From: Girardia tigrina
Lineage: Eukaryota
Reading direction: 5' to 3'
Length of the DNA: 61,842 bases
Assembly: GCA_001938485.1 (NCBI GenBank)
Contig: MQRK01233060.1
Span: forward strand, 1 to 61,842
The position numbers were made by a program, and so were the translations under genes. Positions 4,879-5,610 of the stretch are shown one piece after another (position 1 is the first letter of the stretch; each line of letters starts with the position of its first letter). The notes below the pieces were generated by a model. It had not been told where the DNA came from. It saw only the letters and a program-made list of their open reading frames with translations, and ran no database searches.

Positions 4879-5094
4879 AAACTTGAAATTATGATTAATA
4901 GTTGCGGAAGAGAAGTTACTACGGTAGATTTACCACCACAGAGTAAGGTTAAAGATTTAAAAGATTTGATAGTAAGTAAAATGGAAGTTGAAAATTTTAT
5001 TTTGATCTTTAATAATCAAGTATTGGAATATGATGTATATTTAATAGATTATGGAATATTACCTTCGTATATTAATAATGTGGAAGTTAAAATA
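4879..5094 (+). pseudogene. Ubiquitin-like domain 1, in the gag reading frame
   Basis: LEIMINSCGREVTTVDLPPQSKVKDLKDLIVSKMEVENFILIFNNQVLEYDVYLIDYGI follows the ubiquitin pattern (T-x-x-x-V-K-x-x-I ... LIF-x-G-x-x-LED-x-x-L-x-DY-x-I). Confidence 0.75.
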
Positions 5095-5127
5095 CAAGAA
5101 AAGGACATTGAAAAGAAATATGAATTA

Positions 5128-5355
5128 GAAACTGAAATGCGTATAAAAAATGTTGCACTGAGATTAATTAATGAATTTAGATGTGATTATCTTGATGGCG
5201 AATACATTATTAGTTTGTTAAAGGAAATTGATACGTTTACAGTATCTGAAAGATTAATTCATTTAATTAAACCTTTGTTGGTAGCTCAGATACACAAAAA
5301 TACAAAATTTCGTTCTAACATTAGGGATCTTCTAAAGAAATTTTCGAAGTATCTT
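5128..5355 (+). pseudogene. LEDGF integrase-binding-domain / TFIIS-N-like helical bundle
   Basis: EMRIKNVALRLINEFRCDYLDGEYIISLLKEIDTFTVS...LLKKFSKYL aligns by eye without gaps over ~38 aa to the LEDGF IBD as I recall it ([38 protein letters not shown]...LYNKFKNMF). Confidence 0.5.
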
Positions 5356-5376
5356 CGTAAAGAAAATTCAAATGTA

Positions 5377-5610
5377 TCAAAAATATTTTTAGCATTAAAT
5401 ATTCCTGACAATCGCATTGTTCATGTAGTTGAACATTGGTGCATTAAAGTTAAAAAAGTTTATAGAAAAAGTAAAACGAATAATTGACAACTCTGGAACA
5501 ATTAAATTATTTTACAGAAATCAAGAATTAGAAAATGAGGATTACGTTTATGATTATGGTATTTTAGACGGTGAAATAAATCAAATTCAAGTGATTTTCA
5601 TGGGTAAAGT
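5377..5610 (+). pseudogene. Ubiquitin-like domain 2 (frameshifted)
   Basis: SKIFLALNIPDNRIVHV / ...KLFYRNQELENEDYVYDYGILDGEINQIQVIF has the same L-F-x-x-x-x-LE...DYGI signature as domain 1. Confidence 0.7.

Follow-up and report, generated by a model that had tools for sequence, protein, structure and literature searches.

The interval at positions 4,879 to 5,610 of the window, as we call the whole stretch of 61,842 nucleotides of Girardia tigrina DNA analysed here, is part of a selected cassette, likely a doubled unit of a helix bundle plus a ubiquitin-like domain (UBL), situated between the nucleocapsid and the Env in the single-frame polyprotein of a retroelement. This retroelement, a Ty3/gypsy errantivirus present in many copies, has an in-frame gag-env-pol and is related to the planarian Burro elements. 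The helical bundle between the two UBLs, H2, probably has a TND-family fold, to judge from its predicted structure, and we tentatively propose that the cassette is a protein-docking adaptor for chromatin, transcription-factor or integrase contacts.

By BLASTN, homology to other copies covers about 2445-6695, a 4.25-kb fragment of a repeated element, and at least 157 matches to the frame at 4774-5484 were found in the G. tigrina genome (150 scored of 2219 candidates). The copy in the window is broken, with frameshifts and stops in gag, cassette and env, and it ends within env (Table 1). The capsid frameshifts revealed by tblastn lie near 3640-3660 and 3860-3880, and Env is interrupted by a stop at 6319-6321 and a frameshift near 6540 before its truncation at ∼6695, past which neither pol nor a 3' LTR was seen in this copy. 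In L022, L030 and L182, parts of the 5' LTR-like segment are seen again, either beyond the coding region or duplicated, and Retrotrans_gag was found by Pfam in two relatives (P0002 and P0003). Elsewhere the window contains several mariner-like fragments and long inverted repeats, a GC-rich 21-base tandem repeat at the contig start (1-209), a sequence related to which precedes gag in L028, and host-gene-like exons noted by eye at ∼9290-10000, 14481-14846, 26915-27883 and 30033-30383, which we take to include RCC1-like repeats, a cadherin-like exon and an NPL4-like exon.

Table 1. Features of the element copy in the window, with the evidence for each.
Feature	Position	Strand	Evidence or remark
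5' LTR-like segment	2445..3056	+	BLASTN coverage by other copies begins ∼2445
Primer-binding-site-like TGG motif (putative)	near 3061	+	read from sequence alone
Gag capsid region	3263..3880	+	tblastn with a natural copy; two frameshifts
Nucleocapsid, three CCHC zinc knuckles	4105..4338	+	PF00098, 3 stretches, E 2.6e-10
H1, diverged first copy of the helical domain	4624..4869	+	profile match of unbroken copies to H2
UBL1, beta-grasp ubiquitin-like domain without GG	4879..5094	+	Pfam ubiquitin, model, Foldseek
H2, helical bundle, predicted TND / LEDGF-IBD-like	5125..5370	+	model, Foldseek, VIA-align, profile searches
UBL2, beta-grasp domain without GG	5377..5605	+	frameshift near 5480 in this copy
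Acidic linker and hydrophobic signal-peptide-like segment, into Env	5610..5970	+	translation
gB / chuvirus-type Env, N-terminal part	5971..6695	+	PF24664, E 2.5e-16

In natural copies the domains run in the order capsid, three CCHC knuckles, UBL1, helical domain, UBL2, acidic linker, signal-like segment, gB-type Env (PF24664), transmembrane segment, protease, RT, RNase H and integrase, and both Pfam and marker order place Gag with its CCHC knuckles before the gB-type Env and the latter before PR-RT-RNaseH-IN. Stop-free frames of 1235 aa (L021), 1096 aa (L072) and 1381 aa (L067) carry 94, 42 and 23 masked residues (X), respectively; pieced together from overlapping frames of L021, L072, L067 and L071, the sequences indicate one reading frame from capsid to RT, a composite that no single copy holds whole. 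The distance from capsid to the integrase GPY module is ∼8.5 kb in L068. The signal-peptide-like segment itself spans ∼5914-5970, its hydropathy peak recurs in the natural copies L021 and L072, and it would presumably be cleaved. Eleven runs considered for expression had small word shares; contigs of four runs cover the element, and a 2156-base contig of run X1 spans 4092-6260. Two runs are RNA only by our guess, the coverage consists of contigs throughout and shows no convincing splice joint, and we do not count it as evidence.

At the polyprotein's opposite end, the frame runs 412-462 aa beyond the GPY module in L064 (3-2738 (-)), L071, L074 and L146. About 9 of 20 distinct copies show a short hydrophobic signal-like segment ∼67 aa past GPY, after which comes a beta-rich region that matches fn3 weakly (E 0.072); L173 also belongs to this set.

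The sequence-only reading had described the interval as tandem ubiquitin-like domains fused downstream of Gag. The domains stand, as does the fusion in other copies, where it is intact; in the window itself the fusion is interrupted by an in-frame stop inside H1 (4771-4773), and the two UBLs are not adjacent head to tail but separated by 168 residues that include an ordered helical domain of ∼82 aa, which that reading had overlooked. A tandem pair of the ISG15 kind was rejected because of this spacing. UBL1 matched Pfam ubiquitin above the cut-off (E 1.7e-6), and the C-terminal half of UBL2, at ∼5489-5605 and in a different frame, matched Rad60-SLD (E 0.015). PF11976 (Ubi2/SUMO-like) was matched by all six members searched, with a best E of 3.7e-9. 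Structure prediction, suggested earlier as a check, gave a beta-grasp for both domains in an unbroken copy (pLDDT ∼72-88, the middle being poorly resolved), and among the matches listed by Foldseek for these models there were only ubiquitin, ISG15, FAT10 and similar chains (E ∼1e-9 to 1e-7).

We tallied UBL residues in 57 copies from 7 subfamilies, with positions mapped by motif anchors rather than by superposition. No diglycine follows the last strand in any of 55 UBL1 or 20 UBL2 sequences, as had been noted for the window. The earlier statement that the two domains resemble each other more than either resembles ubiquitin also holds: the UBL1-UBL2 alignment score exceeds both scores to host ubiquitin in each of the 27 complete copies, and mean identities by subfamily are 26-33% between the UBLs versus 17-27% to host ubiquitin. 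In a tree of 44 rows (74 columns retained, three rows long), a branch with 96/95 support splits 24 element-borne UBLs from 20 ubiquitin or host-type rows, and the UBLs that follow H2 cluster at 89/95 (unstarred). The similarity scores and the tree, together with the H1-H2 profile matches described below, bear out the suggested duplication within the element lineage.

A different kind of ubiquitin was encountered in BEL/Pao elements (L115:1702-5235 (-), L119, L120:3845-6250 (-), L123 and others), in which near-authentic ubiquitin lies in frame before Gag (DUF1759 in L115 and L120), with a Pfam E of ∼1e-30 and a terminal GG. It mostly follows an HSP90 fragment, and in L120 a PRMT fragment. We regard this as a separate, recent capture that host deubiquitinases could cleave, and many of the PF00240 matches in long frames may be such BEL/Pao copies.

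The cassette is under purifying selection. Between subfamilies, dN/dS was 0.26 for UBL1, 0.20 for H2 and 0.21 for UBL2, and within subfamilies 0.48, 0.24 and 0.36, respectively. These are pairwise Nei-Gojobori estimates from non-independent pairs; nine frameshifted copies were cut ahead of the shift, and saturated pairs were dropped (4 of 1070 for UBL1, 115 of 1097 for H2 and 5 of 769 for UBL2). The between-subfamily values of 0.20-0.26 rule out the cassette as a neutral passenger, and the comparison among copies that had been proposed for the UBLs thus speaks for selection and not for neutral drift. Retention was assessed at 53 loci that had been retrieved through matches to env, integrase or capsid. 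Ten of them span knuckles and env, only one of which was also known from the cassette search, and all ten hold the cassette at least in part: seven have two UBL matches, and the three of lineage B (see below) have one helical domain. In a further locus, L172, capsid and knuckles are followed by one UBL and then RT, apparently without H2, UBL2, env or protease.

For H2, a model made with relatives added reached a pLDDT of 92.3 and a pTM of 0.82 and has four DSSP helices versus the five of a TND. The first LEDGF IBD match to this middle region arose unprompted in a profile search (E 0.45). Foldseek placed the LEDGF IBD at ranks 1-14 of 233 PDB matches (E 0.15-0.7, probability 0.87-0.99, TM 0.61-0.73), with the TFIIS LW domain and the HRP2 IBD below it. 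VIA-align put a yeast LW/TND domain on top (Z 10.8, rmsd 1.6, 76 residues aligned) and aligned 81 residues of the LEDGF IBD (Z 10.0, rmsd 2.5); Z values on TNDs ranged from 8.6 to 10.8, tied by HEAT-repeat proteins (Z 10.6), and a Z under ∼13 may reflect a common arrangement. By sequence, profile A4 gave the LEDGF IBD at ranks 1-15 of 37 (E 0.018-0.12), the genome-only profile A7 gave the HRP2 IBD first of 45 (positions 3-78 of 82, E 0.041), and the Pfam LEDGF family (PF11467) matched 1 of 13 members (E 0.0053). No match to H2 at E 0.001 or better was returned by Foldseek, A4 or A7. Since GCN4-type coils (E 0.009) outscore LEDGF, which drops to rank 12 (E 0.21), once H1 rows are added (profile A10), the LEDGF E-values are close to noise for helical sequence. 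The agreement between methods is consistent with a TND/IBD-like assignment whose statistics are not secure.

Whether H2 descends specifically from an IBD is more doubtful than the fold, and we put it forward only as a possibility. Host IBD exons did not match H2 (hhalign 0.2% and 0.1%; absent from the best 15 rows), and no significant match marked the host HDGF/LEDGF-like exons L041 and L042 or the Med26-family loci as an H2 donor, the TNDs of the latter giving a weak hhalign match (2%, E 0.022). A search of the genome with PF11467 returned no element copy among its matches. Viral structures in BFVD gave no good match to H2 (best E 1.3), and the ESM Atlas gave no usable lead for H2 (best score 0.78) or for the C-terminal domain of P0016. 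Among family copies, 54 of 55 have Asp or Glu at the position aligned with LEDGF D366, and 56 of 56 have Phe or Tyr at the one aligned with F406; those remote relatives in which the D366 equivalent is covered have Pro, Pro, Val, Glu or a gap there. In LEDGF, D366 and F406 contact integrase (PMC3185499).

The 82 residues before UBL1, H1, resemble H2 mostly in their C-terminal half. With H1 of unbroken copies as the query, hhalign gave 89% (E 2.3e-6) against the A4 profile and 11% (E 0.003) against A7, and the HMM score of H1 exceeded the best shuffle in 5 of 5 cases with A4 and in 0 of 5 with A7. Because H1 matches H2 at the same 168-residue offset as that between the UBLs, the unit that was duplicated is likely, on these alignments, to have been a helix bundle plus a UBL. 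An additional internal duplication of part of the cassette, seen as a second tblastn match, occurs in L036 (∼3149-4348), L012 and L049.

A profile search of 1.84 billion representatives identified 19 proteins at E 0.001 or better. Their arrangements include UBL-H2-UBL (P0009), the end of a UBL followed by H2-UBL (P0010), H2-UBL (P0008), a UBL and then H2 (P0002 and P0025) and Gag proteins with a single H2-UBL (P0012 and P0016). H2 stands immediately before a UBL in P0008, P0009, P0010, P0012 and P0016 and in a second lineage of G. tigrina itself, lineage B (L199:1795-9007 (+), L200, L201, L202), whose elements consist of capsid, one knuckle, H2 (28-31 bits), a diverged UBL, an RGRP motif, a Bcl-2-like domain, Env and Pol, with an Asn/Gly-rich Gag linker and a layout nearer to Burro. 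The Bcl-2-like domain is weak (E 0.11; Bcl-2A1/BFL-1 matches at E 0.7-1.8). The AT-hook-like RGRP motif lies downstream in all five lineage-B or remote Gag proteins that are long enough (L199, L200, L202, P0012 and P0016), with an E of 0.13 to Pfam AT_hook, and is absent from the four Gag-region proteins examined from the window family; LEDGF has AT-hooks. Because H2-UBL is present in lineage B and in distant relatives, we infer that it is older than the split of these from the window lineage, and the doubling would then be derived, or have been lost in some lineages. Downstream of a lineage-B element, the 645-aa frame L204:849-2783 (+) includes an RNase_T (DEDDh) exonuclease domain (E 1.8e-7), and a similar-looking frame lies on the opposite strand (L204:8605-9516 (-)); both are possibly accessory ORFs.

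TNDs act as scaffolds without catalytic activity, recognising short acidic-hydrophobic motifs in transcription factors, and the TNDs of LEDGF and HRP2 serve lentiviral integrases as chromatin tethers (PMC9987994). In the adaptor role that we tentatively assign to the cassette, the predicted LEDGF-IBD-like bundle would bind chromatin, transcription factors or integrase, and the UBL, rather than mimicking ubiquitin, would serve unconjugated as a partner domain, keeping the bundle stable or presenting it. As it precedes the Env signal-like segment, the cassette would face the cytosol and the particle interior; signal peptidase and the element protease might excise it, or it might remain on Gag, and in either form it would travel with the core, packaged inside the particle with Gag. 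That these flatworm errantiviruses anciently captured a LEDGF/HRP-type IBD, with a bundle that binds the element's integrase and is tethered to chromatin by the UBL or by the relatives' AT-hook-like motif, is a bolder proposal that we think unlikely; if true, a retroelement would carry in cis the cofactor that lentiviruses take from the host.

The sequence-only reading had instead favoured interaction modules for ESCRT or proteasome recruitment, or decoys, suited to an enveloped particle. Its view of an enveloped element was borne out by the gB-type Env that Pfam identified, but the Ile44-equivalent patch, proposed as a check, proved to be eroded. At the L8 equivalent, 52 of 55 UBL1 have Cys and 40 of 45 UBL2 have Pro; at the V70 equivalent, 53 of 56 UBL1 have Glu or Asp, and UBL2 have mostly polar residues; and the I44 equivalent, though Ile in 42 of 56 UBL1, is Phe or Trp in all 45 UBL2, so that the L8/I44/V70 hydrophobic patch is not intact. 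Proteasome receptors mostly read this surface of ubiquitin, which tells against the UBL as a signal for proteasome docking or turnover, whether to adjust Gag levels or to clear a Gag-Env junction piece left on the membrane. Such a signal might suit a one-frame gag-env-pol, which would require control of stoichiometry, and the UBLs have weak profile matches to ubiquilin UBLs, UBD/FAT10 and the UHRF1 UBL; no specific UBL family is supported, however, and we consider this role improbable. Less probable still is that the UBLs substitute for a late domain, bringing in ESCRT by way of ubiquitin receptors at budding. The element is enveloped, and engineered Gag fusions with GG-less ubiquitin do bud, but budding in that system requires both L8 and I44 (PMC2958808), while here the L8 and V70 equivalents are lost and UBL2 is without I44. 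In 5 of 6 distinct copies the tail of Env has a YPxL-like motif, a more ordinary late-domain candidate, and ESCRT recruitment would leave the conserved helical partner domain unexplained.

Two further explanations concern the whole cassette. It could be a host-manipulation decoy, comparable to the Bcl-2, BIR and MATH domains of Burro, that titrates TND partners or UBL-binding silencing factors outside integration. The gathering of apoptosis and ubiquitination domains in the cassette region of Burro polyproteins (PMC6431247) and the weak Bcl-2-like domain after the UBL of lineage B are in keeping with this, but the decoy differs from a docking adaptor in purpose alone, the fold being the same; we think it rather unlikely. 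Alternatively, H1 and H2 could be a generic HEAT-like pair and the cassette a spacer or a matrix-like, membrane-proximal scaffold, the likeness to LEDGF being a coincidence of amphipathic helices. The tie with HEAT proteins in VIA-align, the weak E-values with their GCN4-coil control, the lack of a match to host IBD exons and the position next to the Env signal anchor all point this way. Against it, sequence and predicted-structure searches both put the same small family first, and no viral structure in BFVD matches well, and we judge a coincidence of this kind quite improbable. LEDGF binding has been described as a lentiviral route to the choice of integration site. A TND/IBD-like domain encoded by the element, retained in distant gag-env-pol lineages and doubled in that of the window, would show that a retroelement can own an adaptor of this type and would give the Burro-like accessory region a testable role. 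If the fold assignment fails, a more detailed annotation is left, of an element type already known.

That elements of this kind have a UBL after Gag was already known, a point overlooked by the sequence-only reading: the description of the giant planarian gypsy elements Burro/GYPSM1 includes a Ubi2/SUMO-like domain alongside Bcl-2-like and other domains, with env in frame (PMC6431247), and PMC9289625 cites that description. Burro/GYPSM1 shares with the window family a single polyprotein, a Gag with three CCHC knuckles, a PF11976 domain after Gag and env in frame between gag and pol, but has MATH, BIR, ankyrin and Bcl-2-like domains and an internal region of up to 25 kb (PMC6431247), whereas the window family is compact and has two UBLs. 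Pfam found no MATH, BIR, ankyrin or Bcl-2 match in the Gag-to-Env frames of L021 or L027. By domain content the element is therefore a compact relative of Burro and not a member, and the helical TND-like domain is not named in section 7 of the Burro description (PMC6431247). In the papers searched we met neither a retrotransposon with a TND or IBD nor the doubled unit, and an earlier annotation, for instance in Repbase, may exist. Flatworm GAG-ENV-POL errantiviruses with an HSV/gB-type Env, such as Smed_errantivirus_1 and Smed_errantivirus_2, have the gene order and Env type of our element, and the Env in the window is close to that of Smed_errantivirus_1 as judged by eye (PMC13524379). The words ubiquitin, LEDGF and polyprotein do not occur in the main text of that paper, and the Gag extension carries no annotation in the passages searched. 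Engineered Gag-ubiquitin(deltaGG) fusions share a GG-less ubiquitin fold downstream of Gag but need authentic L8 and I44 (PMC2958808), whereas the element UBLs are ∼20% identical to ubiquitin. The closest parallel to H2 is the IBD of LEDGF/p75 and HRP2 (PMC9987994, PMC3185499), on which its predicted fold superposes over 81 of 82 residues and whose acidic loop-1 residue and aromatic loop residue align with H2 of the window family. H2 differs in being element-encoded, 10-22% identical and modelled with four helices, and in being paired with a UBL and lacking a PWWP domain, unlike LEDGF/p75 and HRP2.
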